From an uncultured cyanobacterium (GTDB lineage: Bacteria; Cyanobacteriota; Cyanobacteriia; Cyanobacteriales; Microcystaceae), in the NCBI GenBank assembly GCA_963807635.1, contig CAWEDJ010000100.1:1-45358 (forward strand): 45,358 nt of DNA, written 5' to 3'. The position numbers and the translations under genes were made by a program. This document shows positions 8,830 to 45,358 of this stretch, piece after piece. Below the pieces are notes generated by a model. It ran no database searches. It worked only from the letters and a program-made list of their open reading frames with translations, and was not told where the DNA came from. How positions within the stretch are numbered: the first letter of the stretch is position 1; every line of letters starts with the position of its first letter.

Positions 8830-9157
8830 GAATTTGAGATTGACTTAATTTTTGTTGATACATTTTTTTAAATCTAGTCACAGAAGAGGGCGGACTTAAT
8901 TGCTGTTTTTTTCTTTGTTGATGACCCCATTCTAACCAGTCTGTGATGTATTGACTGACTGCTTCTTGATTGTGTAAATAGTAAAGGATGGTAGCATAAA
9001 TTTGTTCCATGCTAATTCCAGAAAAGTGTTTGATAATTTCTTCAGGCGATCGCTGTTTATAGATGTATTCATAAAGAATACTTTCAATACCAACTCTGGT
9101 GCCTTTTAGCCGAATATCATCCTCGGAGCAGAATTCAAAATATTCTTCTAGTTGCAT
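8819..9157 (-). CDS. DUF433 domain protein (putative antitoxin)
   Basis: IRLKGTRVGIESIL and SMEQIYATILYYLHN motifs; overlaps the downstream DUF5615 gene. Confidence 0.85.
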   Translation of the reverse strand: MQLEEYFEFCSEDDIRLKGTRVGIESILYEYIYKQRSPEEIIKHFSGISMEQIYATILYYLHNQEAVSQYITDWLEWGHQQRKKQQLSPPSSVTRFKKMYQQKLSQSQIHVS

Positions 9158-14882: not shown

Positions 14883-16271
14883 TTAAGGCGGGGAATGCTT
14901 GAGGATAGAAAGTCTCTTTTTGATCTGCTGAACTTCTTCTAGTTTTTTTTGTTTTTCGTAGAGATCTAAGGCTCGTTCAAGATCGGCGATCGCCTTTTTT
15001 CGATTATTTAACGCTTGATAAAGAGTCCCTCGATTAAAATAAGCCTCCGCATTATGGGGATTTAATTTGATCGCTTGGCTGTAATCCTTGATCGCGGCGG
15101 GATGATTTTTGAGAAATTCATAGGTAATTCCCCTTTGAAGATAGGAATTATCATCCTTAGGCTCCAAATAAATCCCTTGATTGTGGTCTTTGATTGCCAT
15201 CAAAAAATTACCTAATTCTCGATAAGCAATTCCTCGATTAGTGTAGGCTAAAATAGTTTTAGGCTCCAGAAAAATAGCTTGGGTATAATCTTCGACAGCT
15301 TTTTGAGGGATACCTAATTGTAAATACGCGCCCCCTCGGTTAGTGTAGGCATCGACATTTTTAGGATCTAGAATAATTGCCTGATTATAGTCAGTTATTG
15401 CTCGTTGAAAATCCTCTAAAAATGTATAGGTATCCCCTCGATTAATGTAAAAAAAAGAATTACTCCTATTGAAACGAATTGCCTGATTAAAGTTTTTGAT
15501 CGCCTGTGGAAAGTCTGCTAACTTTTGATAAACCAGACCTCGATTGTTGTAAGCTAAAGCATAACGAGGATCGAGAACAATTGCTTGATCATAATCTGCG
15601 ATCGCCTTTTGATAGTCCTCTAAAACCCAATAAATTACTCCTCGGTTCAGATAAACTAAAGGATTATTGGCATCCAGAATAATCGCTTGATTATAATTTT
15701 CTAACGCTTTGGGAAAGTTCCCTAATGTCCCGTAGGAATTGCCTCGGTTGAAATACGCATTAGCTTGATCGGGATGGGCAAGAATCACGCGATCCAAATC
15801 TGCGATCGCCTTTTCAGGATTGCCTACGGTGTTATAAGTAATCGCTCGATTAAAATAAATCTCAGCATTATCAGGATTCAGACGAATGGCTTCGGTGAAA
15901 TCAGCGATCGCTTTTGCATAATCCCCTTGTTTTAGTTTTTCTAATCCTGCGGCAAAAATATCTTGATCGGCTTGGGCTAATACGGGTAAGACAAAAGAGA
16001 AAAAATAACGTTCTGGAACAATCCCAAAAAGAGTGTTAATTGTGATTAAAATAATTGTAATAGGAACTAACTTTTCCTGAAAAAAATTATTTTTAATGAA
16101 TACTTTATAAAACGGTTTAAAAACTATGCTATCACGGAGCAATTGATGGTTGTTTCGCCTTATTTTCTCATTCCCTAAATAGTCAAATTTTCTATCTTTA
16201 ACAAAATCAATCCTTGAAATGCAAATATTGGGGAGAGTTTTAATTCTAATGAAGTCGTCAATCTTGCTCAT
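14883..16271 (-). CDS. Tetratricopeptide-repeat protein, probably exported; true start uncertain
   Basis: About 10 tandem 34-aa TPRs (AYxNRG...AIxDYxQAIxLxP) following a hydrophobic segment that ends in VLAQA. Confidence 0.9.
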   Translation of the reverse strand: MSKIDDFIRIKTLPNICISRIDFVKDRKFDYLGNEKIRRNNHQLLRDSIVFKPFYKVFIKNNFFQEKLVPITIILITINTLFGIVPERYFFSFVLPVLAQADQDIFAAGLEKLKQGDYAKAIADFTEAIRLNPDNAEIYFNRAITYNTVGNPEKAIADLDRVILAHPDQANAYFNRGNSYGTLGNFPKALENYNQAIILDANNPLVYLNRGVIYWVLEDYQKAIADYDQAIVLDPRYALAYNNRGLVYQKLADFPQAIKNFNQAIRFNRSNSFFYINRGDTYTFLEDFQRAITDYNQAIILDPKNVDAYTNRGGAYLQLGIPQKAVEDYTQAIFLEPKTILAYTNRGIAYRELGNFLMAIKDHNQGIYLEPKDDNSYLQRGITYEFLKNHPAAIKDYSQAIKLNPHNAEAYFNRGTLYQALNNRKKAIADLERALDLYEKQKKLEEVQQIKKRLSILKHSPP

Positions 16272-16308
16272 ACATTACTACTGTATCTTGGTAAAAATTA
16301 ATATACCA

Positions 16309-17379
16309 TTATGTTTGAGCTTTTATGAATTCTGTTAAGCCTTGGAGTAATTTTTGATGATCGGCTTCGGTGCGAACAGCTACCCGAAAAAAGCGATCGC
16401 CGAGTTCAGGAAAACTAAGACAATCCCGAATTAAAAGATGATGATTAATTAAAAGTTGTTTTTGTAAGTGAGAACTAGCAAAATCGGTTTTTACTAAGAT
16501 AAAATTAACGGCTCCTGGGAGGGGCAACAATCCAGCAATAGCGGTTAAGTTTTTCTCTAATTGTGGTTTGGCTGAGTTTAACCAATCCCAGGTTTGTTGT
16601 TGAAAGGCTTGATCTTCAATTCCCGCGATCGCAGCAGCTCGGCAAATATTCACAGGCCAGGGATCGCGCCAAGCTTGCCACCGTTGCAGATAATCAGGAT
16701 GGCCAATTGCATAACCCAAACGTAATCCAGGCAAACTATAAAACTTCGTCAGCGATCGCAGAATAATTAAATTAGGATATTTTTCTACCAAACAAATGAG
16801 ACTTTCTGATTGCGCTGGCGGTAAAAAATCCATAAAGGCTTCATCAATCACCACTAAGGCAAATTGATCCAACAGAGGTAAAATTTCAGATTTTCTAAAA
16901 AGACGACCCGTCGGATTGTGGGGATTATTTAAGAGCAGACCTGTCTGGGAATAATCTGCGGCAGGAATAATTTCAGGTAATAGCTTCTGGGAAAAAATAT
17001 CGAAGGAAATCGCTTTTACCTTTGCCGAAAAAGTCGTTAATGCTCGATGGTAATCTCCAAAAGCGGGAGTTAATACAATAGTTTCTTTTGCTTTAGCTAA
17101 TTCCCGTCCTGCCCAAGTCAGCAACTCCGCCGAACCGTTGCCTGGCAAGATCCAATCCCCAGGAATATCATGAAAATTTGCTAAACGCGATCGCAGAAAA
17201 AAATAATTGGGATCGGGATAATTCCTGAGTTGAACAAAAGCCGCTTGGAGCGCATTAATAACACTAGAAGGCGGCCCCAAGGGATTAATACTCGCTGAAA
17301 AATCTAGCAAAGAAGAAGCTGGACAGCCCGCAATTTCTGCCGCCCAAGCCAAATTTCCGCCATGATTTGGTTGATTCAC
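16309..17379 (-). CDS. cobD: Threonine-phosphate decarboxylase (cobalamin biosynthesis)
   Basis: HGGN, DFSASINPLG, NNPHNPTG, DEAFMDF and the PLP motif SLTKFYSLPGLRLGY. Confidence 0.9.
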   Translation of the reverse strand: MNQPNHGGNLAWAAEIAGCPASSLLDFSASINPLGPPSSVINALQAAFVQLRNYPDPNYFFLRSRLANFHDIPGDWILPGNGSAELLTWAGRELAKAKETIVLTPAFGDYHRALTTFSAKVKAISFDIFSQKLLPEIIPAADYSQTGLLLNNPHNPTGRLFRKSEILPLLDQFALVVIDEAFMDFLPPAQSESLICLVEKYPNLIILRSLTKFYSLPGLRLGYAIGHPDYLQRWQAWRDPWPVNICRAAAIAGIEDQAFQQQTWDWLNSAKPQLEKNLTAIAGLLPLPGAVNFILVKTDFASSHLQKQLLINHHLLIRDCLSFPELGDRFFRVAVRTEADHQKLLQGLTEFIKAQT

Positions 17380-17673
17380 CTAAGCAGGAGTATTTTTATT
17401 CGGTGAAACCTTATCTTTAAATAATTTACCCGCAGAAAAAGCTGGAACTTTGGTGGCGGGAATAATCATTTTTTCGTTGGTTTTAGGATTGCGGCCTTCC
17501 CGTTCTTTCCGTGAGCGTGCTTCAAAGGAACCGAAGCCAACTAGGGTTACCTTATCGCCTTCAGAAACCGCTTCCATAATGGAGTCGATCGCTGCCGTCA
17601 GCACTGCATCAGCCTGCTTTTTGGTAACAGAGGCTTTCTCAGCGACGGTATGAATTAATTCAGCTTTATTCAT
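17380..17673 (-). CDS. hup: DNA-binding protein HU
   Basis: MNKAELI...VTLVGFGSFE...GRNPKT...VPAFSAGKLFK. Confidence 0.96.
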   Translation of the reverse strand: MNKAELIHTVAEKASVTKKQADAVLTAAIDSIMEAVSEGDKVTLVGFGSFEARSRKEREGRNPKTNEKMIIPATKVPAFSAGKLFKDKVSPNKNTPA

Positions 17674-18034
17674 TCGATAATCTCCTTTAGAGTCTCGTTT
17701 TTGATGTTTTTGGGTAAATCTCTCCCGTTGAAACTTCGCCAGGAGGCTTAACTAATCGGTTGATCAGACTAGATTTATGCGGGTTAATCGCTAGAATCCT
17801 GATAGACTAGCTATTTCAATGATTTATTCTAAGGGGTAATTGCCAAATTTGGATCAAATAAATGATGAATTTATAGAGATTTTTTCGGATTTATTTATAT
17901 TTTGTTACCTGATGCCCAATATTTAAGAAAAGTTCCCCCCTTATTTTGACTCAGATTTTTCTGTTTAAATGGGTTAAAAGTCTTTCTCCATCGATATTTG
18001 AGCCTTTACTGATCAACTCTATCCCCTCAAAATG

Positions 18035-18661
18035 TTACAAACTCAGCCAAGTAATTGCCTGACGAATCCAATCTTCGACATTAGGATTTTTTTGTAAAGT
18101 TGTATCTTGACCCAGAGCCGCGATCGCCCGATTAATCTCAGCTTGGGTATAACCGAGGGCCAAAAGGGTCATTTCCACATCATTAATAATACCTGAATCG
18201 GGGAGATTCGTTGTCTGGGGCAGTCCCGATACTTGCCGCCATTGCGCTAATTTTGTTTTCAGTTCGAGGGCAATGCGTTCTGCGGTTTTTTTGCCGACTC
18301 CTGGGGTTTTGCTCAATTGTTCAATATTCCCCATGACGATCGCCTGTACCAAGCCCTCTAGCCCCAGGGTATCCATCAGCGCGATCGCTAACTGAGTCCC
18401 AATGCCACTGACGCTAATCAGTTGAGCAAACAAATCCCGTTCAGCAGGAGCGACAAAACCAAAAAGTTGTTGTTGATCTTCTCGGACATAAAAATGGGTA
18501 AAAATTTGCAGCGTTTCCTGCTCGTCGGACATCAACGCTTGAGCAAAGCTAATCGGAATCTGGATTTCATAGCCCGTTTGATTCACCTCTAGGATGAGCA
18601 TCATTCGATTCTGAAAATTTTTACCAACGGAAACAAATTGCCCTTTGAGATAATTGATCAT
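18035..18661 (-). CDS. ruvA: Holliday junction branch migration protein RuvA
   Basis: VREDQQQLFGF, LISVSGIG and TPGVGKKTAERIALELK. Confidence 0.96.
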   Translation of the reverse strand: MINYLKGQFVSVGKNFQNRMMLILEVNQTGYEIQIPISFAQALMSDEQETLQIFTHFYVREDQQQLFGFVAPAERDLFAQLISVSGIGTQLAIALMDTLGLEGLVQAIVMGNIEQLSKTPGVGKKTAERIALELKTKLAQWRQVSGLPQTTNLPDSGIINDVEMTLLALGYTQAEINRAIAALGQDTTLQKNPNVEDWIRQAITWLSL

Positions 18662-18691
18662 GTTTTAGTGCAAGTCAAGTTTGCTACTTTT

Positions 18692-18756
18692 GGGCGTAAG
18701 CCTTGCGCCCCTACGATTCCCTAAAAACCTTATGTAGGGGCGAATTGCGTCCGCCC
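18692..18756. repeat. Oppositely oriented pair of GTAG-family REP palindromes
   Basis: GGGCGTAAGCCTTGCGCCCCTAC (18692-18714) and GTAGGGGCGAATTGCGTCCGCCC (18734-18756). Each has a GTAG head and a GGGCG...CGCCC stem. Confidence 0.75.
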
Positions 18757-18815
18757 TTGGACTAGATAAGATGAATCTATAACCCTAATTCCCAGAGAAC
18801 CCGCGTTTTGAATGA

Positions 18816-19819
18816 TTAACAGCTTAGTCCTAGCATAGTTTTTCGCCCGTGAGGTTCTAACAAATTCGATAAATCTGGCCCATCGGCACAATTCCTCCTG
18901 GATTGACAGGAAAAAGATTGCCATAATAATCTTGCTTAACTTGTTCTAGATTACAGGTTTGAGCGACTCCTGGCAGTTGATAAATATCTCGCAAATAAGC
19001 TCCCAAATTTTGATAATCCTGAATGCGGCGGATATTACACTTAAATAAACCGTAATAGACAACATCAAAGCGAAAAAGAGTGGTAAATAGACGCACATCC
19101 GCCAAGGTTACCTGATTTCCACAGAGGTAGCGATCGCGACTTAACACTTGATCAATTTCATCCAAAGTCACAAAAAGAGCTTGGCAGGCTTGTTCATAGG
19201 CCAATTGCGTTTGGGCAAAACCGCAACGATAAACGCCATTATTCACCGTTTGATAGATTTTTTCGTTCCAGTGGTCAATTTTTTCCCTTAAAGCTTCGGG
19301 ATAAAGATCAAGCTCAGGATGGGTCGCCCATTCATTAAATTCACTATTTAACATAACAATAATTTCTGCACTCTCATTGTTGACGATCGCCTTCTTTTTT
19401 TCGTCCCACAATACAGGAACCGTTGACCGACCCGCGTAACCTGGTTTTGCTAAAGCATAAAGTTCAGGTAAATTGCTACAATTTTCTTCACTGTCAGCCA
19501 TTACCCAAATTCCCGACTCTGCTGATGGAATCACCACAGAAACCGCGATCGCCTGTTCTAACCCCTTTAAGGCACGAACTACCAACGTACGATGCGCCCA
19601 GGGACAGCCCAATCCCACATAGAGACGATAACGCCCTTTTTCGGGTTGATAAGAATTATCGGGGTCTGTTCCCACAAAATTTCTAAACTCACTTTGAGGA
19701 CGAATATACTCACCTGACACATTGCGAGGAGCCAATTTCGACATCATTTGATGCCAAATCGTTGTCCAGACCCATTTTCCGAAACGAATAATAAATTTAG
19801 AGGGAAGAGCTTTTGACAT
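18816..19819 (-). CDS. Glutathionyl-hydroquinone reductase (omega/xi-class GST), with a probable frameshift near 18878
   Basis: CPWAHR active site, TVPVLWD, NNESAEI and NNGVYRCGFA. Adding one C restores the expected tail GPDLSNLLEPHGR... with a stop at 18816; the ORF track ends at 18857. Confidence 0.88.
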
Positions 19820-19908
19820 GGATATTTTAGGTATCTAAAAATACTTTTTGGGTTGTAAAAATCCTTAATGATAAAAAAGTGTCCTGGAGCTTTTTTCAGA
19901 AAAATTAT

Positions 19909-19960
19909 CTTAATCAAAGCTTAAACTAAAATAGCTTCCTTCTTGACTAACATTTAATTT
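19909..19960 (+). promoter_or_regulatory. Putative Pho box (SphR-type) array upstream of phoU
   Basis: CTTAATCA (19909), CTTAAACT (19920), CTTGACTA (19942) and TTTAATTT (19953) are all in 11-bp phase and resemble YTTAAYYW. The background is AT-rich. Confidence 0.4.
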
Positions 19961-20034
19961 TTCTAGCCAAATCCCAGTTTTTTAACTAAGATTATTATCA
20001 ATAATATCTTCATTATAATTAACCTTTTAAAACC

Positions 20035-26855: not shown

Positions 26856-29091
26856 CTAACGGGACGATTCTACGGCGATCGCTACAATCCGCCATTGATC
26901 ATTTTGACGAATGAGTTGATAACGCACTAATAAATCGTCATTTTGCAATTTAGTTGGCTTGGCATTAGAGTTGTCCTTGTAATACTTCGTTACTTCCTGA
27001 ACTCTCGCTTGAATGGTTGCTCGATTCGGATTATTAGGGTCAAATTTCAGGGATTTAATCTCAACCTTGTGGTCATACTGACGATAAATACCTCTTTGTT
27101 TGTCCCGCGCCGCTCGAACCTGCCATTGGGATAAAAGGGGTTCTGCTAAAATAGTTGATAGGGCCGCAATGTCATGATCTTGACCAAAAGCCTTTGATTT
27201 GCTCGATAACCAGCCCTCAATGACCCCAGAAGCCACATCATTAGTTAACTCTCCCTTGGGGATTAGATGGGCCGTCGCAGAAGCCGTACTAGGAAATTCA
27301 AGGGGAGCTTGGTTTAACTGAATATTTAATTGATCCCCTTGCAAGGCATTTAAAGGCGATCGCATGGATTGAATTCCAAAAATTCCCAATCCCAGGATGA
27401 CCAAACCCGACAAAACGACGGTTCCAAGGCGCACAGGATTAATGACCGTTTTGCGTTTACGCTTTCTTTTTCTACGGGGTTCGGGGTCTTTTTGCTCAGT
27501 TAAATCCAGTGGATCGGCGGTAAGAGGGGGAAATTTTGGGGTAAGAAGAGACTCTGCGGGGTTAGGCCAATAACCTTCAACCGAGGAAACCATATCGCCG
27601 TCAGCCACGTCACCCAGAGGAATAAGCGTCGCCGTACCCGTTTTTCCATTAGATTCTGAAGCATGACGGGCAGACCGAGAACGACGAAAATCAGCACGCC
27701 GTTTTCGGGGCGGGACATCTTCACTTTGCGTATTGTGATATTCTGCTAGATTTCTAGCCATGGGAGATTCCAACTCTGTGGGGGGATGCACGGAAAAATA
27801 GGGTGTGGGAGCATCGGGGGAGAGAGTTTCTAAATAGATCTGGACATCCGCATCGGAAAAATAGTCTTCTAGGGAGACTGTTTGGCCAGATAGATCTCGA
27901 AAATGGGGAAAAATCTCAGTCTGTAACCAACTTTCTCCATAGGAACAAAGTCCAGGCAGGAGATCGGGAGAACCCTGCGATCGCTGTTGAATAAAATCGA
28001 GAGCTTTGTGATCCTGACTTTTTTCGAGAGATTGATTAGCTAATTGGGTCTGTCCTAATAATAAAGCACAAATTGCCTCTTCAAGTCCAGTATCCTGACG
28101 ATTTTTAAATTTATTTAACAAACTTTGGCACTGGACGAGGTAACTTGGTTTTCTTTGGGAAAAACCTTTAGCGATCAGGGCGTAACTAGCCAAATAGCTG
28201 GCGGCGACGAGAAGGCCGTTCGGATTCTTCAACAAACAAAGAGAGTTGTTCATCCACCGTGAGATGATTCCGCAATTGTTGAACAAAACGCAGAAAGTCA
28301 TCAGTTCCTAACCCAGACCGATCATTCCCCCGACCTTCAATGCCCCGACGATCCTGGATCATTTCTTTGAGAAGTTGTAATCCCTGGTCGCGATCGCTAT
28401 TGTCATCCTGGCTCAAGGTTAACTTTTCCAGAATACGGTAGGGACGTAGACGATAAAGTTCATTGCGGATTTCCTGTTGAATAGTGGGATGAAGATTTTC
28501 TTCCTGCAACCAGGCTAGAGCCTTGACCCCAAAAAAAGAAGCCCTTTCATAATTCTGGTTTTGCCACTGTTCTCGACTTAATTCCAAATTAGCCAAAGCA
28601 ATGGTTAGGACTAAATCCTGACGACTGGTGGAAAATACCCTCGGATCATCGCAATTTCGTAGCGCCAACTCTCCATACTGACCAATCAGTTCGTATTCCC
28701 CTAATTCTTGAAAAATCAGTAAGGCTCCTATTAATTGAGGATCACTAATTTCGATCCAGGGGGATTGGGGGTCTAGGTCATCATTCTCAGCCGATGAATC
28801 AATTTCTTCATTACTATCTTCCGATGGGACAGATTCAGCTTGCTCTGGTGTCTCATTTTCAGCCCTTCCCCACCATTTTTGGGTATATTCTGCTCTTTGC
28901 TCTGCATCCGATAAAATACTGTAGGCTCTGTCTAATAATTCTTTCCGAGAGGCGATCGCCACCTCACTGTACTCACGACGGGGTAACTGAACTAATCGAT
29001 CTTGATAGGCTTGAGAAATCTGTTCCTCTGTTACCTGCAAAGGAATTCCTAAAATCCTATAATAATCGAGCGGGATTCGCACAGTGGACAT
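26856..29091 (-). CDS. ftn2: Cell-division protein Ftn2/ZipN (ARC6 homologue; J-domain, TM, DUF4101/IMS domain), frameshifted near 28210
   Basis: VRIPLDYYRILG, QAYQDRLVQLPRREYS, LRPYRILE, FLRFVQQLR, DLLPGLCSYGESWL and a C-terminal W..SKSKAFG..HD domain. Confidence 0.9.
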
Positions 29092-29412
29092 CCTCAAAAC
29101 AGCATTAGGGAGACGACGCTTAGCTCTACTATGGTAAAACCATTTCCCGATAGTTGCCCATGAGCCAAGACTCCTATCAATTAAGATAAATAGCATTTAA
29201 GATTTATAACATTAATTTTAAGATTATTGTGTGAATTTCCCAGGATTTTTAATTTGGCGCAATTTTGACGTAAAGATTGACAATCTGCACGGGAATGTCT
29301 CCCGTTCTTCCTAAAAAAATTAAGCAAAGATTTTCTTGGCTCGATCCAGTTAGCTGATAAATCTGAGATAATTCTTAACAACCTAATCTATTTTTACAGA
29401 GCTACAGACGTT

Positions 29413-30448
29413 ATGGTTGCTGAACGTATCCTACCCGAATTCAATACCGCGAGTATTTCCATGTCAAAGGAAAAGGGTCTTCTACTCTACGAAGACATGG
29501 TCTTAGGACGCTTATTCGAAGATAAATGCGCCGAAATGTACTACCGAGGAAAAATGTTCGGTTTTGTCCATCTTTACAACGGACAAGAGGCTGTTTCTAC
29601 GGGAATTATTCGGGCCATGCGGCGGGATCAGGATTATGTTTGCAGTACCTATCGGGATCACGTCCATGCTCTCAGTGCTGGAGTCCCCGCTAAGGAAGTG
29701 ATGGCTGAATTATTTGGGAAAGCAACGGGCTGTAGTAAGGGCAAAGGCGGATCGATGCACCTTTTTTCCGAACCCCATAAATTATTAGGAGGCTTTGCTT
29801 TTATTGGCGAGGGAATTCCTGTGGCGATGGGAGCGGCGTTCCAAAGTAAATATCGTCGCGATGCCCTGGGGGATGCTTCCTCTGATTCCGTGACAGCTTG
29901 TTTTTTTGGCGATGGAACCAGTAATAACGGTCAGTTTTTTGAGTGTCTAAATATGGCGGCTCTCTGGAAACTCCCTATTTTGTTTGTGGTTGAAAATAAT
30001 AAATGGGCGATCGAGCATGGCCCACGAAAGGGCAACTTCTCAGCCTGAAATTTATAAAAAAGCAGAAGTTTTTAATATGGTCGGGGTAGAAGTGGATGGA
30101 ATGGATCTATTAGCGGTTCATTCCGTTGCCGAAGAAGCCGTTGCTCGTGCCAGGGCAGGAGAAGGGCCAACTTTGATCGAAGCTTTGACCTATCGTTTCC
30201 GAGGACATTCCCTCGCCGATCCCGACGAACTGCGATCGCCTGACGAGAAACAATTCTGGGGAGCGCGTGATCCCATTCAAAAATTTGCGGCCTATTTAAC
30301 GGAATATAATTTGGTTTCCTCGGAAGAACTCAAGGAAGTTGATAAAAAGGTACAAGCCATTATTGATGAAGCAGTGAAATTTGCCGAAAGTAGCCCAGAA
30401 CCCGATCCGAGTGAACTCTATCGCTTTGTTTTTGCGGAAGATGAATAG
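29413..30448 (+). CDS. pdhA: Pyruvate dehydrogenase E1 alpha subunit, frameshifted near 30014
   Basis: [33 protein letters not shown] and [12 protein letters not shown]. One extra A breaks WAIGMAHER. Confidence 0.96.
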
Positions 30449-34860: not shown

Positions 34861-35012
34861 GGGGATTCCTTGATGTATCCAGATTTTTTCTTACTGAATT
34901 ATACGCTTTGGGCTTCCGTTATTAAAGAAAAATAGAGGCGATCGCAATTCGATAAACTCACTGACTGTAATTTGCCCCTATTCAAGGTTTTTGCAGATTT
35001 GTATCGGCTTTT

Positions 35013-38000
35013 TTACCAAGGATTGCCAATCAATGTAAAAGCACTCCAGTAATAAGGATGGCTTGTATCCATATTTTTAAAATTTCGACGTAGAGAGAGA
35101 GGAACGGAGATGCTCAAGGAGCGATTATTGTCCCCGATCAGCATCTGATTTTTTTGAAGGCTAACTTTTTTGTGGAGCAAGCTCAACTGGGCTTGACGTA
35201 GGGCATCCGCTTTTGTGGGAGCTTCTTTTAGTTGGTTATAAAAACTGGTCATTAATGCCAGGGTTCCTGCATCGCTGACGTACCACAAGCTACCTAACGC
35301 TGTTCTAACTCCCGTTTTGACCGCTAATCCCGCAAATCCTAATTCAGCGTCGGGATCTCCCAAGGCAGTTTGACAAGCCGACAGGGTTAAAAGATCAATG
35401 GGTCGGTCTAATCCTAAATTGGCAAATTCATCTAGAGTTAGTTTTTTGTCACTGAACACTACAAAGGAATTGTTGCGATCGCCAGACTTGAATTCTCCGT
35501 GAGTAGCGAGGTGAACAATACTAAACTGATTAGAATTGAGAGCATTTTTAAAATTTTCGACGGTAAAATCTTGGTTTAAAAATATCTGACCTGGCCAAAT
35601 ATTTTTTGCAATTTCTGTTAATTCAGTAGGTACGGCGGGTAAAGGATTTTGATCAGAAAAAGTATCCGCTCCCATCCCTAAAACCTTTGCTCCTCGACGA
35701 TCTTGACGAGTTGTATCCGTGAGAGAAAGACTCGGAATTAAACTAACACTATATTTTTCAATAATGTATTGCTGGCTATCCGCATCATAAAGAGCCGCTA
35801 GGGGGAGAGAACGCAAACCCTGATCCAATACAAAGGTAAGGTTAGTAATCTCCTGATTTTTAAGAGCATCCTCAATCGGGCTAATTAACCACTGATAAAG
35901 TTGCTTGGATTGGGGTAGAAAATCTTCTACAGGAGCAATATTCGTTAGATTTTGTTGTAGTTGTAAAGAAGCTTTCAGGACTTGCTCACGAGTAACACCT
36001 TGAATGGATAGGGGCAAAATATTTTGGTCGCTTACTAAGACCACCTCTAGCTGATCATCATTTTTTCTTTCGGTATTCGCAGTTGAATTACGGGCGCGAT
36101 TTAATTCCCACAGCGAACTATTTTCCGTCAAAGACTCAGATTTAGCAGAACGAAAGAAGACATAAATTAAGACAGATTTTACCCCAGTGACTTGTTGAAC
36201 ACTCGTTAAAATGCTTGGAATATTGTTTAAGGGAATTTCAGGTTTAGAAGGAAGACCTAACTGATTGCTATAATCTGTTGTAAAACTTTTATCGAGGGTA
36301 TCGACAACCGCTACTGTCCCTTTTTGTGAAGAGTATGTAGTTAAACTATTGGAAGAAGTGGATGATTTTGATGGAACTTCGGAAGAAGAAGCTGGAGTCT
36401 GAGATGTGGAATCCTGTTGATTAGGTGGATTTACAAAAATAGGTACTTGGCTATCGGTTATGGGAAGTGAAATTCCATTATTCAAGAAGATATTACCGTT
36501 GGTGTTATTGAAAAGATAGGATTGGGTGGGATTGATAGTATATTCTCCCGATGTAATGGCTCCTTGTGTTCCATTTGCGCTGGCATTCCCGACAGTAAAT
36601 GGAGTATTTCCATTACCTCCATTACGAATGGTAATTGTTCCTCCTCCTTGGGAACCTGCACTGGAAAGACTTGCTGTCACACCATTTTGATCAACAAATG
36701 TTTGTGTCGCTCGGAAAAATCGGGCCGTTGTTATGTCAATATTTCCTCCCACACCGTTGGTACTTTGAGCATTAATATAACCCACTTGAACATCGTTATC
36801 TGGATCGATAAAAACATTGCCTGCCTTCTCTCCAGAGGTCGTAATTGCTCCTGTTGTAATAGCGGTTTTGGCTTTTATGGTAATATCTCCGCCGCTTGTG
36901 GAACCTGCTGTATTTAAGTTGCCTGTGTTGATTGAACCCGAAGTTGCGGTTAGGGCTAACTTTGCCCCAGTTGCGCTCGTATTAGATAGATCAATGTTTT
37001 GGGTTTTAAGGTTCTCTCCCGCCTGTACATTGAGGGAATGACTACCTTGAATATTTCCTGTTACGTTAATATTTCCACTGTTTCCCGTACTAATTGTGGC
37101 AATATTCCCTAGAGTAATGTTGCCATTGATGCTTAGATTTTGTCCTTGAGTCGTCAAGTCTGCATTAAGATTTGTGATCCCATTTAGGGTAAGTTTTCCT
37201 TTGGTATTAATCGCTTGATTAACGGTAATCGTATTGTTGGCGGCGGCTAAATTGAGATCAAAATTAAACGCGATCGCCTCTGCAACCGTAATAGGACTGT
37301 TATCATTTCCAATCGTCACGCTACTAAAATTAGGCGAAATGAGACTTAATTCGGCGGTGGTCAGATCCAGCGCATTGGAATCGATTGTGTTTGTGCCTCC
37401 GATTAAAATATTGCGCCCCGAACTACTAGACTGAAAAGTAAGTTTTCCTGTTCCTTGAATAGAGCCTGTCCAATCAATTTTATCAGCAATAAAGGTAATA
37501 TTTTGATTGTTCGTTTTGACCGTGTCAGCAAAGACAATGCTAGATTTACCTGCATTAAAAGTTACATCGTTAGTAATAGTAACGGGATTCTCAAAATAAA
37601 GAGGAGTAGTCCCATTAGTCGTTAGATTAGCATTAAGATTAGTTATACCTTTAAAGGTGATTGAGGCATCATCTTGTCCGTCGATTGTGTTATTGACATT
37701 AATTGAGCCAGAAGGAGAACTTAAGGTAATAGAGTCATTAAAAATTACATTTCCTACTACATTAATCAAACTGCTACTATCGGAACGTCCAATAGTAATG
37801 GACTTAAATCCATTTTGAATAGTATTTAATTCGGAGCTATCAAGATTAAAGGTTCCTGTTGCACCATTACCATCACCAATATCAATAGATGTTGATGCGT
37901 TTAAAGGCTGTAAGAACAAATTACCTTTACCTTGAATTAAGGTTGATGACAAGTTGATTAAATTACCCGATATGATAATATCTCTTGAACTTTGCGGATT

Positions 38001-41000
38001 GCCAATGGGAGAGGTTGAATCAAAATTAGGAGCATTAAATCCCGCGATAGCAACTCCAAATTGAGAACCTTCTCCAATGATACTAATTGTTCCTGTCGCT
38101 ATTGGGTCATTACCGATTTTGGCACTAATAAATACGCCTCCTCCATTACTATTTGCCAAATCATTTTTTCCATCAATAGTGATCGTTCCTGTACTTGAAA
38201 TAGTTCCTGGGCTTATTACAATTCCTTCTACTATTCCATTACCATTAAAAGCATTATTAGATAATGCTTGTCCAGTTAAGGTAATATTTCCACTATTACT
38301 TATAATAGATGGTATCCCGTTTTTAAGTAATATGCCTTCACCTGCTGTATCTCCAGCTTTTCCTTTTAATGTAATATTGCCAGTGGTGGAGCTAATATTA
38401 GCATTGTTAATATAGATACCATCAAAACTTCCTGTCGTGGCAGTTGTTTGTTGATTGGCATTTAAGTTAATTGCACCGCTAGTGGTTGTAATACTGGAAC
38501 CCGAATTTAGCGTAATACTTCGAGCCGCATCAAATTGAATATTTCCTGTTCCTGTGTTGATAGCAGAATTGGCATTTAGAATAATATCTTGAACTGCATT
38601 AATGCTAAAATTATTCGTCGTCCCTGTAACATTAGATAGAGTGAGATTACTTCCAGTAAGAGTTGTATTACCTTTTAACGTGACTGCATCGTTATAGGCT
38701 TGACTTCCTGTAGTAGTAATATCGCCATTAATTTGACTACTTCCTTCTGCGTCAGTGGTTACACTAGCTGCCTTGACTGTGTTATTAAATAGGGTTGTGC
38801 TACCACTATTAACGCTTAAGTTTCCTAATGCTTTTGTATTTCCGACTGAATCATTAAAGCTGATATTTCCTGTGCCACTGTTGAGGGTTAAATCGTTGGC
38901 TTCTCCACTTTGGGAGTCTACTGTTTTGTTGAAAGTGATGTTGCTGTTAGTAGTCGTTAAGGTTACAGGGTTCTGAATTTCTACGGTATCGTTATAAGTT
39001 TGATTTCCTGTGGTTTTAAGATCGCCATTAATTTGACTGCTTCCTTCTGCATCAGTGGTTAAACTAGTAGCCTTGACTGTGTTATTAAATAGGGTTGTAC
39101 CACCACTATTAACACTTAAGTTTCCTAATGCTTTTGTATTTCCGACTGAATCATTAAAGCTGATATTTCCTGTGCCACTGTTGAGGGTTAAATCGTTGGC
39201 TTTTCCACTTTGGGAGTCTACTGTTTTGTTGAAAGTGATGTTGCTGTTAGTAGTCGTTAAGGTTACAGGGTTCTGAATTTCTACGGTATCGTTATAAGTT
39301 TGATTTCCTGTGGTTATAATATCGCCATTAATTTGACTGCTTCCTGTTGCATCAGTGGTTAAACTAGTAGCCTTGACTGTGTTATTAAATAGGGTTGTAC
39401 CACCACTATTAACACTTAAGTTTCCTAATGAATTTATATTTCCTACCGAATTATTAAAGCTGACGTTTCCTGTGCCACTGTTGATGGTTAAAGCGTTGGC
39501 TTTTCCACTTTGGGAGTCTACTGTTTTGTTGAAAGTGATGTTGCTGTTAGTAGTCGTTAAGGTTACAGGGTTCTGAATTTCTACGGTATCGTTATAAGTT
39601 TGATTTCCTGTGGTTATAATATCGCCATTAATTTGACTGCTTCCTGTTGCATCAGTGGTTAAACTAGTAGCCTTGACTGTGTTATTAAATAGGGTTGTAC
39701 CACCACTATTAACACTTAAGTTTCCTAATGCTTTTGTATTTCCGACTGAATCATTAAAGCTGATATTTCCTGTGCCACTGTTGAGGGTTAAATCGTTGGC
39801 TTTTCCACTTTGGGAGTCTACTGTTTTGTTGAAAGTGATGTTGCTGTTAGTAGTCGTTAAGGTTACAGGGTTCTGAATTTCTACGGTATCGTTATAAGTT
39901 TGATTTCCTGTGGTTATAATATCGCCATTAATTTGACTGCTTCCTGTTGCATCAGTGGTTAAACTAGTAGCCTTGACTGTGTTATTAAATAGGGTTGTAC
40001 CACCACTATTAACACTTAAGTTTCCTAATGAATTTATATTTCCTACCGAATTATTAAAGCTGACGTTTCCTGTGCCACTGTTGATGGTTAAAGCGTTGGC
40101 TTTTCCACTTTGGGAGTCTACTGTTTTGTTGAAAGTGATGTTGCTGTTAGTAGTCGTTAAGGTTACAGGGTTCTGAATTTCTACGGTATCGTTATAAGTT
40201 TGATTTCCTGTGGTTTTAAGATCGCCATTAATTTGACTGCTTCCTTCTGCGTCAGTGGTTAAACTAGCTGCCTTGACTGTGTTATTAAATAGGGTTGTAC
40301 CACCACTATTAACACTTAAGTTTCCTAATGCTTTTGTATTTCCGACTGAATCATTAAAGCTGATATTTCCTGTGCCACTGTTGAGGGTTAAATCGTTGGC
40401 TTTTCCACTTTGGGAGTCTACTGTTTTGTTGAAAGTGATGTTGCTGTTAGTAGTCGTTAAGGTTACAGGGTTCTGAATTTCTACGGTATCGTTATAAGTT
40501 TGATTTCCTGTGGTTATAATATCGCCATTAATTTGACTGCTTCCTGTTGCATCAGTGGTTAAACTAGTAGCCTTGACTGTGTTATTAAATAGGGTTGTAC
40601 CACCACTATTAACACTTAAGTTTCCTAATGCTTTTGTATTTCCGACTGAATCATTAAAGTTGACATTTCCTGTGCCACTATTGAGGGTTAAATCGTTGGC
40701 TTCTCCACTTTGGGAGTCTACTGTTTTGTTGAAAGTGATGTTGCTGTTAGTAGTCGTTAAGGTTACAGGGTTCTGAATTTCTACGGTATCGTTATAAGTT
40801 TGATTTCCTGTGGTTATAATATCGCCATTAATTTGACTGCTTCCTGTTGCATCAGTGGTTAAACTAGTAGCCTTGACTGTGTTATTAAATAGGGTTGTAC
40901 CACCACTATTAACACTTAAGTTTCCTAATGCTTTTGTATTTCCGACTGAATCATTAAAGTTGACATTTCCTGTGCCACTATTGAGGGTTAAATCGTTGGC

Positions 41001-44000
41001 TTCTCCACTTTGGGAGTCTACTGTTTTGTTGAAAGTGATGTTGCTGTTAGTAGTCGTTAAGGTTACAGGGTTCTGAATTTCTACGGTATCGTTATAAGTT
41101 TGATTTCCTGTGGTTTTAAGATCGCCATTAATTTGACTGCTTCCTTCTGCGTCAGTGGTTACACTAGCTGCCTTGATTGTGTTATTAAATAGGGTTGTAC
41201 CACCACTATTAACACTTAAGTTTCCTAATGAAGTTGTATTTCCGACTGAATCATTAAAGCTGATATTTCCTGTGCCACTGTTGAGGGTTAAATCGTTGGC
41301 TTCTCCACTTTGGGAGTCTACTGTTTTGTTGAAAGTGATGTTGCTGTTAGTAGTCGTTAAGGTTACAGGGTTCTGAATTTCTACGGTATCGTTATAAGTT
41401 TGATTTCCTGTGGTTTTAAGATCGCCATTAATTTGACTACTTCCTGTTGCATCAGTGGTTAAACTAGCTGCCTTGACTGTGTTATTAAATAGGGTTGTAC
41501 CACCACTATTAACACTTAAGTTTCCTAATGCTTTTGTATTTCCGACTGAATCATTAAAGTTGACATTTCCTGTGCCACTGTTGAGGGTTAAACCGTTGGC
41601 TTCTCCACTTTGGGAGTCTACTGTTTTGTTGAAAATGATGTTGCTGTTAGTAGTAGTTAAGGTTACAGGGTTTTGAATTTCTATGGTATCGTTATAAGTT
41701 TGGTTTCCTGTGGTTATAATATCGCCATTAATTTGACTGCTTCCTGTTGCATCAGTGGTTAAACTAGTAGCCTTGACTGTGTTATTAAATAGGGTTGTAC
41801 CACCACTATTAACACTTAAGTTTCCTAATGCTTTTGTATTTCCGACTGAATCATTAAAGTTGACATTTCCTGTGCCACTGTTGAGGGTTAAATCGTTGGC
41901 TTCTCCACTTTGGGAGTCTACTGTTTTGTTGAAAGTGATGTTGCTGTTAGTAGTCGTTAAGGTTACAGGGTTCTGAATTTCTACGGTATCGTTATAAGTT
42001 TGATTTCCTGTGGTTTTAAGATCGCCATTAATTTGACTACTTCCTGTTGCATCAGTGGTTAAACTAGCTGCCTTAACTGTGTTATTAAATAGGGTTGTAC
42101 CACCACTATTAACACTTAAGTTTCCTAATGCTTTTGTATTTCCGACTGAATCATTAAAGTTGACATTTCCTGTGCCACTATTGAGGGTTAAACCGTTGGC
42201 TTCTCCACTTTGGGAGTCTACTGTTTTGTTGAAAGTGATGTTGCTGTTAGTAGTCGTTAAGGTTACAGGGTTCTGAATTTCTATGGTATCGTTATAAGTT
42301 TGATTTCCTGTGGTTTTAAGATCGCCATTAATTTGACTGCTTCCTTCTGCATCAGTGGTTAAACTAGCTGCCTTGACTGTGTTATTAAATAGGGTTGTAC
42401 CACCACTATTAACACTTAAGTTTCCTAATGCTTTTGTATTTCCGACTGAATCATTAAAGCTGATATTTCCTGTGCCACTGTTGAGGGTTAAATCGTTGGC
42501 TTTTCCACTTTGGGAGTCTACTGTTTTGTTGAAAGTGATGTTGCTGTTAGTAGTCGTTAAGGTTACAGGGTTCTGAATTTCTACGGTATCGTTATAAGTT
42601 TGATTTCCTGTGGTTATAATATCGCCATTAATTTGACTGCTTCCTGTTGCATCAGTGGTTAAACTAGTAGCCTTGACTGTGTTATTAAATAGGGTTGTAC
42701 CACCACTATTAACACTTAAGTTTCCTAATGCTTTTGTATTTCCGACTGAATCATTAAAGCTGATATTTCCTGTGCCACTGTTGAGGGTTAAATCGTTGGC
42801 TTTTCCACTTTGGGAGTCTACTGTTTTGTTGAAAGTGATGTTGCTGTTAGTAGTCGTTAAGGTTACAGGGTTCTGAATTTCTACGGTATCGTTATAAGTT
42901 TGATTTCCTGTGGTTATAATATCGCCATTAATTTGACTGCTTCCTGTTGCATCAGTGGTTAAACTAGTAGCCTTGACTGTGTTATTAAATAGGGTTGTAC
43001 CACCACTATTAACACTTAAGTTTCCTAATGAATTTATATTTCCTACCGAATTATTAAAGCTGACGTTTCCTGTGCCACTGTTGATGGTTAAAGCGTTGGC
43101 TTTTCCACTTTGGGAGTCTACTGTTTTGTTGAAAGTGATGTTGCTGTTAGTAGTCGTTAAGGTTACAGGGTTCTGAATTTCTACGGTATCGTTATAAGTT
43201 TGATTTCCTGTGGTTATAATATCGCCATTAATTTGACTGCTTCCTGTTGCATCAGTGGTTAAACTAGTAGCCTTGACTGTGTTATTAAATAGGGTTGTAC
43301 CACCACTATTAACACTTAAGTTTCCTAATGCTTTTGTATTTCCGACTGAATCATTAAAGCTGATATTTCCTGTGCCACTGTTGAGGGTTAAATCGTTGGC
43401 TTTTCCACTTTGGGAGTCTACTGTTTTGTTGAAAGTGATGTTGCTGTTAGTAGTCGTTAAGGTTACAGGGTTCTGAATTTCTACGGTATCGTTATAAGTT
43501 TGATTTCCTGTGGTTATAATATCGCCATTAATTTGACTGCTTCCTGTTGCATCAGTGGTTAAACTAGTAGCCTTGACTGTGTTATTAAATAGGGTTGTAC
43601 CACCACTATTAACACTTAAGTTTCCTAATGAATTTATATTTCCTACCGAATTATTAAAGCTGACGTTTCCTGTGCCACTGTTGATGGTTAAAGCGTTGGC
43701 TTTTCCACTTTGGGAGTCTACTGTTTTGTTGAAAGTGATGTTGCTGTTAGTAGTCGTTAAGGTTACAGGGTTCTGAATTTCTACGGTATCGTTATAAGTT
43801 TGATTTCCTGTGGTTATAATATCGCCATTAATTTGACTGCTTCCTTCTGCGTCAGTGGTTAAACTAGCTGCCTTGACTGTGTTATTAAATAGGGTTGTAC
43901 CACCACTATTAACACTTAAGTTTCCTAATGCTTTTGTATTTCCGACTGAATCATTAAAGCTGATATTTCCTGTGCCACTGTTGAGGGTTAAATCGTTGGC

Positions 44001-45356
44001 TTTTCCACTTTGGGAGTCTACTGTTTTGTTGAAAGTGATGTTGCTGTTAGTAGTCGTTAAGGTTACAGGGTTCTGAATTTCTACGGTATCGTTATAAGTT
44101 TGATTTCCTGTGGTTATAATATCGCCATTAATTTGACTGCTTCCTGTTGCATCAGTGGTTAAACTAGTAGCCTTGACTGTGTTATTAAATAGGGTTGTAC
44201 CACCACTATTAACACTTAAGTTTCCTAATGCTTTTGTATTTCCGACTGAATCATTAAAGTTGACATTTCCTGTGCCACTATTGAGGGTTAAATCGTTGGC
44301 TTCTCCACTTTGGGAGTCTACTGTTTTGTTGAAAGTGATGTTGCTGTTAGTAGTCGTTAAGGTTACAGGGTTCTGAATTTCTACGGTATCGTTATAAGTT
44401 TGATTTCCTGTGGTTATAATATCGCCATTAATTTGACTGCTTCCTGTTGCATCAGTGGTTAAACTAGTAGCCTTGACTGTGTTATTAAATAGGGTTGTAC
44501 CACCACTATTAACACTTAAGTTTCCTAATGCTTTTGTATTTCCGACTGAATCATTAAAGTTGACATTTCCTGTGCCACTATTGAGGGTTAAATCGTTGGC
44601 TTCTCCACTTTGGGAGTCTACTGTTTTGTTGAAAGTGATGTTGCTGTTAGTAGTCGTTAAGGTTACAGGGTTCTGAATTTCTACGGTATCGTTATAAGTT
44701 TGATTTCCTGTGGTTTTAAGATTGCCATTAATTTGACTGCTTCCTTCTGCGTCAGTGGTTACACTAGCTGCCTTGATTGTGTTATTAAATAGGGTTGTAC
44801 CACCACTATTAACACTTAAGTTTCCTAATGAAGTTGTATTTCCGACTGAATCATTAAAGCTGATATTTCCTGTGCCACTGTTGAGGGTTAAATCGTTGGC
44901 TTCTCCACTTTGGGAGTCTACTGTTTTGTTGAAAGTGATGTTGCTGTTAGTAGTCGTTAAGGTTACAGGGTTCTGAATTTCTACGGTATCGTTATAAGTT
45001 TGATTTCCTGTGGTTTTAATATTGCCATTAATTTGACTACTTCCTGTTGCATCAGTGGTTAAACTAGCTGCCTTGACTGTGTTATTAAATAGGGTTGTAC
45101 CACCACTATTAACACTTAAGTTTCCTAATGCTTTTGTATTTCCGACTGAATCATTAAAGTTGACATTTCCTGTGCCACTGTTGAGGGTTAAACCGTTGGC
45201 TTCTCCACTTTGGGAGTCTACTGTTTTGTTGAAAATGATGTTGCTGTTAGTAGTAGTTAAGGTTACAGGGTTTTGAATTTCTATGGTATCGTTATAAGTT
45301 TGGTTTCCTGTGGTTATAATATCGCCATTAATTTGACTGCTTCCTGTTGCATCAGT
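35013..45356 (-). CDS. Giant filamentous-haemagglutinin-like repeat protein with C-terminal CHAT protease domain (5'-partial, at least 3,447 aa)
   Basis: I read the frame codon by codon from 38159 through the first full repeat unit and found no stop. The remaining units keep exact 300-bp phase, and the variants I checked add no stops. The track starts at 38159 only because no ATG/GTG/TTG occurs in frame upstream. The sequence is G/N/T/S/I-rich and beta-helix-like, with CHAT motifs HLATHG, LTLSACQT, LGSLWYVSD and HPYYWSAFTLIGNPW. Confidence 0.92.
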   Translation of the reverse strand, partial: TDATGSSQINGDIITTGNQTYNDTIEIQNPVTLTTTNSNIIFNKTVDSQSGEANGLTLNSGTGNVNFNDSVGNTKALGNLSVNSGGTTLFNNTVKAASLTTDATGSSQINGNIKTTGNQTYNDTVEIQNPVTLTTTNSNITFNKTVDSQSGEANDLTLNSGTGNISFNDSVGNTTSLGNLSVNSGGTTLFNNTIKAASVTTDAEGSSQINGNLKTTGNQTYNDTVEIQNPVTLTTTNSNITFNKTVDSQSGEANDLTLNSGTGNVNFNDSVGNTKALGNLSVNSGGTTLFNNTVKATSLTTDATGSSQINGDIITTGNQTYNDTVEIQNPVTLTTTNSNITFNKTVDSQSGEANDLTLNSGTGNVNFNDSVGNTKALGNLSVNSGGTTLFNNTVKATSLTTDATGSSQINGDIITTGNQTYNDTVEIQNPVTLTTTNSNITFNKTVDSQSGKANDLTLNSGTGNISFNDSVGNTKALGNLSVNSGGTTLFNNTVKAASLTTDAEGSSQINGDIITTGNQTYNDTVEIQNPVTLTTTNSNITFNKTVDSQSGKANALTINSGTGNVSFNNSVGNINSLGNLSVNSGGTTLFNNTVKATSLTTDATGSSQINGDIITTGNQTYNDTVEIQNPVTLTTTNSNITFNKTVDSQSGKANDLTLNSGTGNISFNDSVGNTKALGNLSVNSGGTTLFNNTVKATSLTTDATGSSQINGDIITTGNQTYNDTVEIQNPVTLTTTNSNITFNKTVDSQSGKANALTINSGTGNVSFNNSVGNINSLGNLSVNSGGTTLFNNTVKATSLTTDATGSSQINGDIITTGNQTYNDTVEIQNPVTLTTTNSNITFNKTVDSQSGKANDLTLNSGTGNISFNDSVGNTKALGNLSVNSGGTTLFNNTVKATSLTTDATGSSQINGDIITTGNQTYNDTVEIQNPVTLTTTNSNITFNKTVDSQSGKANDLTLNSGTGNISFNDSVGNTKALGNLSVNSGGTTLFNNTVKAASLTTDAEGSSQINGDLKTTGNQTYNDTIEIQNPVTLTTTNSNITFNKTVDSQSGEANGLTLNSGTGNVNFNDSVGNTKALGNLSVNSGGTTLFNNTVKAASLTTDATGSSQINGDLKTTGNQTYNDTVEIQNPVTLTTTNSNITFNKTVDSQSGEANDLTLNSGTGNVNFNDSVGNTKALGNLSVNSGGTTLFNNTVKATSLTTDATGSSQINGDIITTGNQTYNDTIEIQNPVTLTTTNSNIIFNKTVDSQSGEANGLTLNSGTGNVNFNDSVGNTKALGNLSVNSGGTTLFNNTVKAASLTTDATGSSQINGDLKTTGNQTYNDTVEIQNPVTLTTTNSNITFNKTVDSQSGEANDLTLNSGTGNISFNDSVGNTTSLGNLSVNSGGTTLFNNTIKAASVTTDAEGSSQINGDLKTTGNQTYNDTVEIQNPVTLTTTNSNITFNKTVDSQSGEANDLTLNSGTGNVNFNDSVGNTKALGNLSVNSGGTTLFNNTVKATSLTTDATGSSQINGDIITTGNQTYNDTVEIQNPVTLTTTNSNITFNKTVDSQSGEANDLTLNSGTGNVNFNDSVGNTKALGNLSVNSGGTTLFNNTVKATSLTTDATGSSQINGDIITTGNQTYNDTVEIQNPVTLTTTNSNITFNKTVDSQSGKANDLTLNSGTGNISFNDSVGNTKALGNLSVNSGGTTLFNNTVKAASLTTDAEGSSQINGDLKTTGNQTYNDTVEIQNPVTLTTTNSNITFNKTVDSQSGKANALTINSGTGNVSFNNSVGNINSLGNLSVNSGGTTLFNNTVKATSLTTDATGSSQINGDIITTGNQTYNDTVEIQNPVTLTTTNSNITFNKTVDSQSGKANDLTLNSGTGNISFNDSVGNTKALGNLSVNSGGTTLFNNTVKATSLTTDATGSSQINGDIITTGNQTYNDTVEIQNPVTLTTTNSNITFNKTVDSQSGKANALTINSGTGNVSFNNSVGNINSLGNLSVNSGGTTLFNNTVKATSLTTDATGSSQINGDIITTGNQTYNDTVEIQNPVTLTTTNSNITFNKTVDSQSGKANDLTLNSGTGNISFNDSVGNTKALGNLSVNSGGTTLFNNTVKATSLTTDAEGSSQINGDLKTTGNQTYNDTVEIQNPVTLTTTNSNITFNKTVDSQSGEANDLTLNSGTGNISFNDSVGNTKALGNLSVNSGSTTLFNNTVKAASVTTDAEGSSQINGDITTTGSQAYNDAVTLKGNTTLTGSNLTLSNVTGTTNNFSINAVQDIILNANSAINTGTGNIQFDAARSITLNSGSSITTTSGAINLNANQQTTATTGSFDGIYINNANISSTTGNITLKGKAGDTAGEGILLKNGIPSIISNSGNITLTGQALSNNAFNGNGIVEGIVISPGTISSTGTITIDGKNDLANSNGGGVFISAKIGNDPIATGTISIIGEGSQFGVAIAGFNAPNFDSTSPIGNPQSSRDIIISGNLINLSSTLIQGKGNLFLQPLNASTSIDIGDGNGATGTFNLDSSELNTIQNGFKSITIGRSDSSSLINVVGNVIFNDSITLSSPSGSINVNNTIDGQDDASITFKGITNLNANLTTNGTTPLYFENPVTITNDVTFNAGKSSIVFADTVKTNNQNITFIADKIDWTGSIQGTGKLTFQSSSSGRNILIGGTNTIDSNALDLTTAELSLISPNFSSVTIGNDNSPITVAEAIAFNFDLNLAAANNTITVNQAINTKGKLTLNGITNLNADLTTQGQNLSINGNITLGNIATISTGNSGNINVTGNIQGSHSLNVQAGENLKTQNIDLSNTSATGAKLALTATSGSINTGNLNTAGSTSGGDITIKAKTAITTGAITTSGEKAGNVFIDPDNDVQVGYINAQSTNGVGGNIDITTARFFRATQTFVDQNGVTASLSSAGSQGGGTITIRNGGNGNTPFTVGNASANGTQGAITSGEYTINPTQSYLFNNTNGNIFLNNGISLPITDSQVPIFVNPPNQQDSTSQTPASSSEVPSKSSTSSNSLTTYSSQKGTVAVVDTLDKSFTTDYSNQLGLPSKPEIPLNNIPSILTSVQQVTGVKSVLIYVFFRSAKSESLTENSSLWELNRARNSTANTERKNDDQLEVVLVSDQNILPLSIQGVTREQVLKASLQLQQNLTNIAPVEDFLPQSKQLYQWLISPIEDALKNQEITNLTFVLDQGLRSLPLAALYDADSQQYIIEKYSVSLIPSLSLTDTTRQDRRGAKVLGMGADTFSDQNPLPAVPTELTEIAKNIWPGQIFLNQDFTVENFKNALNSNQFSIVHLATHGEFKSGDRNNSFVVFSDKKLTLDEFANLGLDRPIDLLTLSACQTALGDPDAELGFAGLAVKTGVRTALGSLWYVSDAGTLALMTSFYNQLKEAPTKADALRQAQLSLLHKKVSLQKNQMLIGDNNRSLSISVPLSLRRNFKNMDTSHPYYWSAFTLIGNPW

Positions 45357-45358
45357 GG
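38700..45358 (-). repeat. Coding tandem array of about 22 x 300 bp, with 600-bp and 3,600-bp higher-order periodicity
   Basis: Sequence lines recur every 300 bp. Unit peptide: TTDATGSSQINGDIITTGNQTYNDTVEIQNPVTLTTTNSNITFNKTVDSQSGKANDLTLNSGTGNISFNDSVGNTKALGNLSVNSGGTTLFNNTVKATSL. Confidence 0.98.

Follow-up and report, generated by a model that had tools for sequence, protein, structure and literature searches.

A probable length outlier in the widespread TpsA-CHAT family of cyanobacteria, annotated in databases and apparently unstudied

What protein ends in a 10.3-kb frame that runs off a cyanobacterial contig, and what might a protease at the tip of a giant filament be for? The window analysed here (45,358 nucleotides) is the entire contig C100 of a 107-contig assembly, and the missing start of the frame is a contig break. 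As a preliminary description of this DNA had it, one uninterrupted minus-strand frame reaches 35013; it begins open at 45356, comprises 3,447 codons free of stops (protein label P0001), and a chance ORF was rejected as its explanation. From N to C, it contains an array of 22.2 units of 300 bp (100 aa; 38688..45358), about 730 aa of non-identical sequence (previously put at about 750 aa), a Ser/Thr/Pro linker and a CHAT domain, all on the minus strand. Sequence comparison places non-identical beta-helix-like modules at 36918..38687. Homologue matches and AlphaFold delimit a conserved, predicted terminal beta-helix "cap" module (36489..36917) that serves as a family marker and is matched in 30 of 201 genomes of the phylum at E ≤ 1e-10. 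The linker (36327..36488; pLDDT below 50) is predicted to be disordered and includes, at about 36351-36431, the stretch quoted in the earlier account. It is followed by an alpha/beta pre-CHAT subdomain (35910..36326), delineated by AlphaFold and Foldseek, and by the CHAT peptidase itself (35013..35909), which ends in GNPW and the stop codon. Pfam finds no domain in P0001 other than CHAT, NCBIfam gives no match, and none of the 3,447 residues lies in a segment sufficiently hydrophobic for a transmembrane stretch. Elsewhere in the window are a 374-aa ORF with no Pfam match (412-1536), a split transposase (2340-3774) and a DUF433/DUF5615 pair (8515-9157), which we take to be toxin-antitoxin-like.

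The protease is the best-defined part of the chain. A profile search for PF12770, as earlier suggested, assigns aa 3150-3445 to CHAT with E 7e-72, and both dyad motifs are in place, His3286 in ATHG (codon 35499-35501) and Cys3328 in LSAC (codon 35373-35375), the latter being the single cysteine of P0001. The His-Cys dyad is invariant in 121 of 121 proteins (the 120 listed homologues and the query). CHAT is terminal in every one of them, with a G[NS]PW end in 120, in a set that was gathered with the CHAT end, so that other tips on such stalks fall outside it. Within the genus the domain is 77-97% identical; three comparisons between members put its dN/dS at 0.046-0.129, and that of the linker is about 0.5. 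Structure prediction of the C-terminal region (AlphaFold, 92 sequences) shows, with a mean pLDDT of 86, a confidently modelled cap rich in beta structure and, beyond a disordered linker, an alpha/beta unit of pre-CHAT plus CHAT. Foldseek matches the model of that unit to Csx29 first (E 3e-14), then to separase, SAVED-CHAT and DdvA, with gingipain R among the top matches, which points to a caspase/separase fold; a sequence search of the PDB returned only a non-significant match to legumain (E 0.94). Judged by its sequence, the CHAT domain looks catalytically intact.

The front end of the protein very likely lies on another contig, C105 (locus label L001), at whose right end the gene order is tpsB, TPR1 (membrane), TPR2 (exported) and tpsA, with the TPR1 and TPR2 genes at L001:8367-10687. 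Extending the search 5' in this way brought up the signal peptide, TPS domain and TpsB gene that had been proposed for an exported filament. A hydrophobic, signal-like stretch precedes a TPS domain (PF05860, E 5e-37; TIGR01901 above cut-off), and a tpsB with matches to PF03865 and PF08479 lies three genes upstream, two further tpsB genes being present elsewhere in the genome. This 5' part amounts to about 1,740 codons and is open at its 3' end. There is no exact overlap between the ends of C105 and C100, and the link to the window is indirect. At the ends of the 107 contigs, however, the only FHA-like open frames (rich in Asn, Gly, Thr and Ser) are the 3'-open frame of C105 and the 5'-open frame of C100; the source genome has three TPS-domain genes, and the join is supported by the other two being complete. 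The C105 half contains a module that shares 76% identity with one of the window's non-identical modules. The decisive result comes from the metagenome locus L065, one of nine loci, which carries both ends in one unbroken ORF of 3,364 codons behind a TPR2 gene of 91% identity: identity is 93% between its TPS end and that of C105, and comparison with the window gives 90% for the linker region and 97% for CHAT. C105 and C100 are therefore read as one gene, very likely encoding a single TpsA with a minimum length of about 5,190 aa (1,740 + 3,447). Overall we assign a probability of roughly 0.9 to the identity and architecture of the product as a TpsA-CHAT exoprotein.

Whether this particular copy works as assembled is a separate matter, independent of mechanism. 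The family could be real and the source copy non-functional or over-assembled, that is, with a true frameshift in the TPS domain, a shorter array, or both. We give this reading a minority share of appreciable weight. Near L001:11,260 in the C105 half, the TPS domain contains a frameshift; multi-copy elements disrupt the orthologues of the two closest genomes (30 listed copies for that in G005, 3 matches for that in G003); and contigs from two of the four sequencing runs compared (X4 and X5, from related strains) have a 606-nt deletion (34911-35518) that takes away the second half of CHAT, catalytic Cys and stop codon included. The gene seems to have been lost often in the lineage. Against a non-functional source copy, L065 is intact at the frameshift site, the whole 10.3-kb frame is without a stop and CHAT has a low dN/dS. 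The assembly is moreover indel-prone, because pdhA (29413-30448), ispG (13513-14738) and ftn2/arc6 (26856-29196) in the window are each also split into two overlapping ORFs, probably by assembly indels, and the TPS frameshift is likely an error of the same assembly. One contig from run X3 spans lpxD, CHAT and the linker, with in-frame indels in the linker; among the public sequencing runs, the best shares at most 27% of the window's words.

Doubt of a similar kind attaches to the array. Tandem Repeats Finder reports 22.2 copies of the 300-bp unit with 96% matches, and 14 of the 22 units are distinct at the DNA level. Units 1-10 differ from units 13-22 by only 14 positions in 3,000 nt (3,600-bp offset), compared with 3.3-4.0% differences at the other 14 offsets tested, and the array hence holds a higher-order duplication of 12 units (3.6 kb). 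This duplication may be a recent event or an assembly artefact, the latter in keeping with the over-assembly reading and with the 600-bp repeat assembly error suspected for slr1753 in the available text of PMC3514855. The array described previously is real, but its count of about 22 repeats is insecure. With 2,226 aa it is the longest near-identical array among the 147 sequences compared, the next having 1,260 aa, and tandem duplications are present in 73 of the 147. For three repeat units (32 sequences), AlphaFold predicts strands only, with a pLDDT of 95.8; we infer a beta-helix from TpsA biology. The ESM Atlas gives the repeat a low recognition score and no named family, and its N-glycosylation sequons (7 against 5.0 ± 1.7 expected) are not above chance. 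FHA has about 2,300 aa. With a length of 500 Å for FHA (PMC5422565, available sections), roughly 50 nm of filament would come from the array by itself at FHA-like density. The length variability of the filament is shown between relatives rather than within the species, and a reach set by repeat number is not supported: the middle of L065, the closest intact relative, consists of different modules and lacks the 100-aa array. At aa ~580-960 of the L065 protein (L065:1689-11780), the place of beta-helix modules is taken by an extended Gly-rich insert that includes a CxxC motif.

The claim of an undescribed system must be qualified, since the build is not unique. Searches limited to proteins of 2,150-5,000 aa gave 383 matches among 7,998 scored candidates, and TPS and CHAT are both present in 105 of the best 120 of these 383, bearing out the earlier statement that cyanobacterial fusions of FHA and CHAT exist; a search at 348-1,110 aa gave 2,738 matches among 8,000 candidates. 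To judge by sequence, the TpsA-CHAT build is common, shared by hundreds of cyanobacterial proteins, and the source protein is an extreme-length member of this widespread family: it exceeds the best 120 of the 383 homologues, the longest of which has 4,880 aa in a search that extended to 5,000 aa. The full-length TPS-CHAT genes in the loci examined (n = 22) are also shorter, ranging from 895 to 3,947 codons. Five near-complete genomes together have 41 TPS genes, of which 9 carry a fused CHAT; a separate same-strand CHAT occurs within 10 kb in 14 of 24 CHAT-less TPS loci, for which random points give a chance of 2-6% in a set of related, non-independent genes. Rows that were second pieces or below cut-off (2 of 43 for TPS, 4 of 112 for CHAT) are left out of the counts. 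A GT2 glycosyltransferase (PF00535) is present in 17 of the best 120 long homologues (P0030, P0035, P0051 and P0062 among them), N-terminal in all four checked and ahead of the TPS domain in three of the four, those in which TPS was detected, suggesting an enzyme that could glycosylate the filament. The family is annotated in databases and apparently unstudied in the literature searched.

Phylogeny and gene neighbourhood reveal how the protease is distributed relative to the filament. In a quick tree of the last 400 aa (39 rows, signal peptides judged by eye), one clade (SH-aLRT 98) mixes 17 TpsA-CHATs with 11 CHATs that are short and filament-less, with a signal-like N-terminus and no TPS domain, forcing at least three changes; this type of protease is therefore kept without a filament. 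Nine TPR-CHATs from the loci fall outside the clade, and two TPR-CHATs from the database fall inside. Stand-alone CHATs with a signal-like N-terminus, of the same clade as the TpsA-fused ones, are found at L021:6646-8163, L025:7810-9438, L041:6752-8134, L046 and L048. In the source genome, the two CHAT-less TpsAs are complete proteins of about 830 aa with a Cys pair at the end, by analogy recalling the disulfide anchor of HMW1 and HxuA. On contig C67 (L002:5504-11170), a separate TPR-CHAT gene comes immediately after such a short Cys-pair TpsA, a split TPS/CHAT pair; C39 carries the second short TpsA, upstream of a tpsB, at about 15,900-20,000 (genome G000), and C42 (L003:5945-8392) has a frameshifted TPR-CHAT.

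On these findings we build a tentative mechanism, to which as a whole we give somewhat less than even odds: CHAT would be a periplasmic anchor that sheds the filament on a signal. The protein would be exported by Sec and threaded through TpsB starting from the TPS domain, as the signal-like stretch, the TPS domain and the adjacent tpsB suggest. The stalk would be a series of exchangeable modules, predicted to fold as beta-helix, of which one has been amplified about 22-fold, and the exchange is seen between relatives. By analogy with the C-termini of HMW1, HxuA, CdrA and CdiA, the disordered linker might span the TpsB pore and the globular pre-CHAT/CHAT unit might stay inside. Regulated cleavage of its own chain or of a sister TpsA could then shed the filament, in effect CdrA and LapG in one chain. 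Available sections of PMC5422565 and PMC9086364 describe TpsA C-termini as often staying periplasmic and CdrA as released by periplasmic LapG. An envelope-resident processing protease is favoured by the filament-less CHATs, the coupling of TPS and CHAT and the absent hallmarks of contact-dependent inhibition (CDI) taken together; a cytoplasmic CHAT was rejected. Not all evidence points the same way. HetF cleaves after Arg (PMC9457339, accessible text), whereas the linker of the window has no Arg, 11 of 35 homologous linkers (21-237 aa long) are likewise Arg-free, and these linkers have no conserved Arg column, so that a cis cleavage site is not visible. Filament-less CHATs have nothing to release in cis, and a substrate in trans or a signalling substrate fits them equally. 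Also on the opposing side, no more than 7 of the 22 full-length genes have tpsB next to them or at a distance of one gene.

The strongest competitor in function is a periplasmic signalling protease, in which contact or tension sensed by the filament would lead CHAT to clip an envelope partner, such as the membrane or the exported TPR protein encoded between tpsB and tpsA, as proposed for DdvA; we regard it as possible, at odds well below even. It draws on the genes next to tpsB on C105. Hydrophobic segments are present in TPR1. The N-terminus of TPR2 is signal-like, and TPR2 also contains a conserved Cys pair and is similar to DUF928/TPR clusters (DUF928-like by the Atlas). Nine of the 19 TPR1 matches were inspected, and seven of the nine loci lie outside a tpsB-tpsA setting (L026, L028-L030, L032-L034); six of these seven have a same-strand CHAT within about 7 kb, which makes TPR1 and TPR2 a possible CHAT-associated module on gene order. 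The filament-less exported CHATs fit a substrate in trans, and DdvA offers a precedent for a periplasmic CHAT, its autoproteolysis being only proposed in the available part of PMC11506125. Weighing against signalling, most TpsA-CHAT genes are without an adjacent TPR1 or TPR2, G003 has a truncated TPR1 and has lost TPR2, and the locus contains no receptor, kinase or sigma factor gene.

A fully exported protease on a stalk, acting outside the cell on colony matrix proteins, neighbours or grazers with its reach set by stalk length, appears unlikely. The missing transmembrane stretch and the catalytic residue as the only cysteine would suit it, a TpsA protease (LepA) is listed in the sections available of PMC5422565, and the sharp divergence of the stalk modules between ends that are 93-97% identical is what one expects of an exposed part. 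It is opposed by the retention of the same CHAT clade without a stalk, by strong purifying rather than diversifying selection on CHAT, and by the single cognate substrates of the CHATs studied. A MARTX-type CPD toxin, the autoprocessing alternative raised at the outset, has effector domains flanked by CPD cleavage sites and uses type I export; it is a poor fit and was rejected, with CHAT as the sole Pfam domain of P0001, TPS export and no effector domain behind CHAT in 121 of 121 proteins, hence nothing behind the protease. Least probable by far, and likewise rejected, is the CdiA-like contact-delivered toxin that had also been considered: the size and build of the TpsA do match CdiA (180-630 kDa; PMC9086364, accessible text) and C-terminal caspase-like toxins have been proposed (PMC3482391, accessible text), but the C-terminus is invariant rather than polymorphic, the pretoxin motifs of PMC9086364 (VENN, (E/Q)LYN and others) are absent from P0001 and the listed four- and five-letter ones occur within 520 aa before CHAT in only 11 of 121 proteins, the same part of PMC3482391 lists Tox-Caspase with T2SS, T6SS, T7SS and PVC and not with T5SS, and no immunity gene is apparent, the 152 bp to lpxD (34861..35012) leaving no space for one, as was noted earlier, and 24 loci sharing no downstream ORF (10 of them have no ORF at all within 300 nt). 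A promoter and terminator scan of 34861..35012 gave one promoter-like site, at chance level.

If the filament-releasing mechanism holds, it would represent an undescribed caspase-controlled way of attaching and letting go in cyanobacteria. A broader proposition, which we put forward with the balance clearly against it, is that cyanobacterial TPS systems are routinely wired to caspase-fold proteases, fused or next door; that fusion gives a giant filament able to shed itself by a LapG-like periplasmic switch; and that in the colonial genus concerned the ends are fixed, with exchange and amplification of modules remodelling the stalk to more than 500 kDa. To our knowledge, no substrate is known for most bacterial CHAT proteases, and the type Vb systems of cyanobacteria have received little study. 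CHAT as a dedicated filament-processing enzyme would provide a role for hundreds of annotated proteins and a handle on the assembly of freshwater cyanobacterial colonies and biofilms. The source copy is notable mainly for its size and, because of the assembly doubts, is a poor experimental model. No study of a TPS-CHAT fusion was found in the main text of the open literature searched; in the portions available of PMC6058365 and of bioRxiv 10.1101/2024.08.29.610226, slr1753 of Synechocystis is treated as a hypothetical surface protein whose knockouts grew like controls.

Among known systems, TpsA-CHAT shares the signal peptide, TPS domain, adjacent tpsB and, by prediction, the long beta-helix with CdrA/CdrB and LapG of Pseudomonas aeruginosa, HMW1 and HxuA of Haemophilus influenzae, and FhaB/FhaC and SphB1 of Bordetella. 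In CdrA, HMW1, HxuA and FhaB, the C-terminal part can stay periplasmic and release is proteolytic, and the maturation proteases are separate and encoded outside the TPS operons (PMC5422565, as far as its available text goes), whereas in TpsA-CHAT a clan CD protease is fused C-terminally or, in other loci, encoded next door. For T5SS, PMC3482391 lists HINT as the processing protease. With HetF of Anabaena, Csx29/TPR-CHAT of Craspase, DdvA of Myxococcus and separase, the family has in common PF12770, the His-Cys dyad and a predicted fold of pre-CHAT plus CHAT, and the CHAT of DdvA is periplasmic (PMC11506125, available part); it differs from them in having a predicted beta-helix filament in place of a TPR domain in the chain. 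CdiA/CdiB/CdiI resemble it in that a large TpsA carries a C-terminal enzyme and differ in their polymorphic CT, pretoxin motif, immunity gene and orphan cassettes, none of which TpsA-CHAT has. The closest likeness of all is to the database entries named "CHAT domain-containing" or "filamentous hemagglutinin family protein", which show the same succession of TPS domain, variable helix, cap, linker and a CHAT ending in G[NS]PW.
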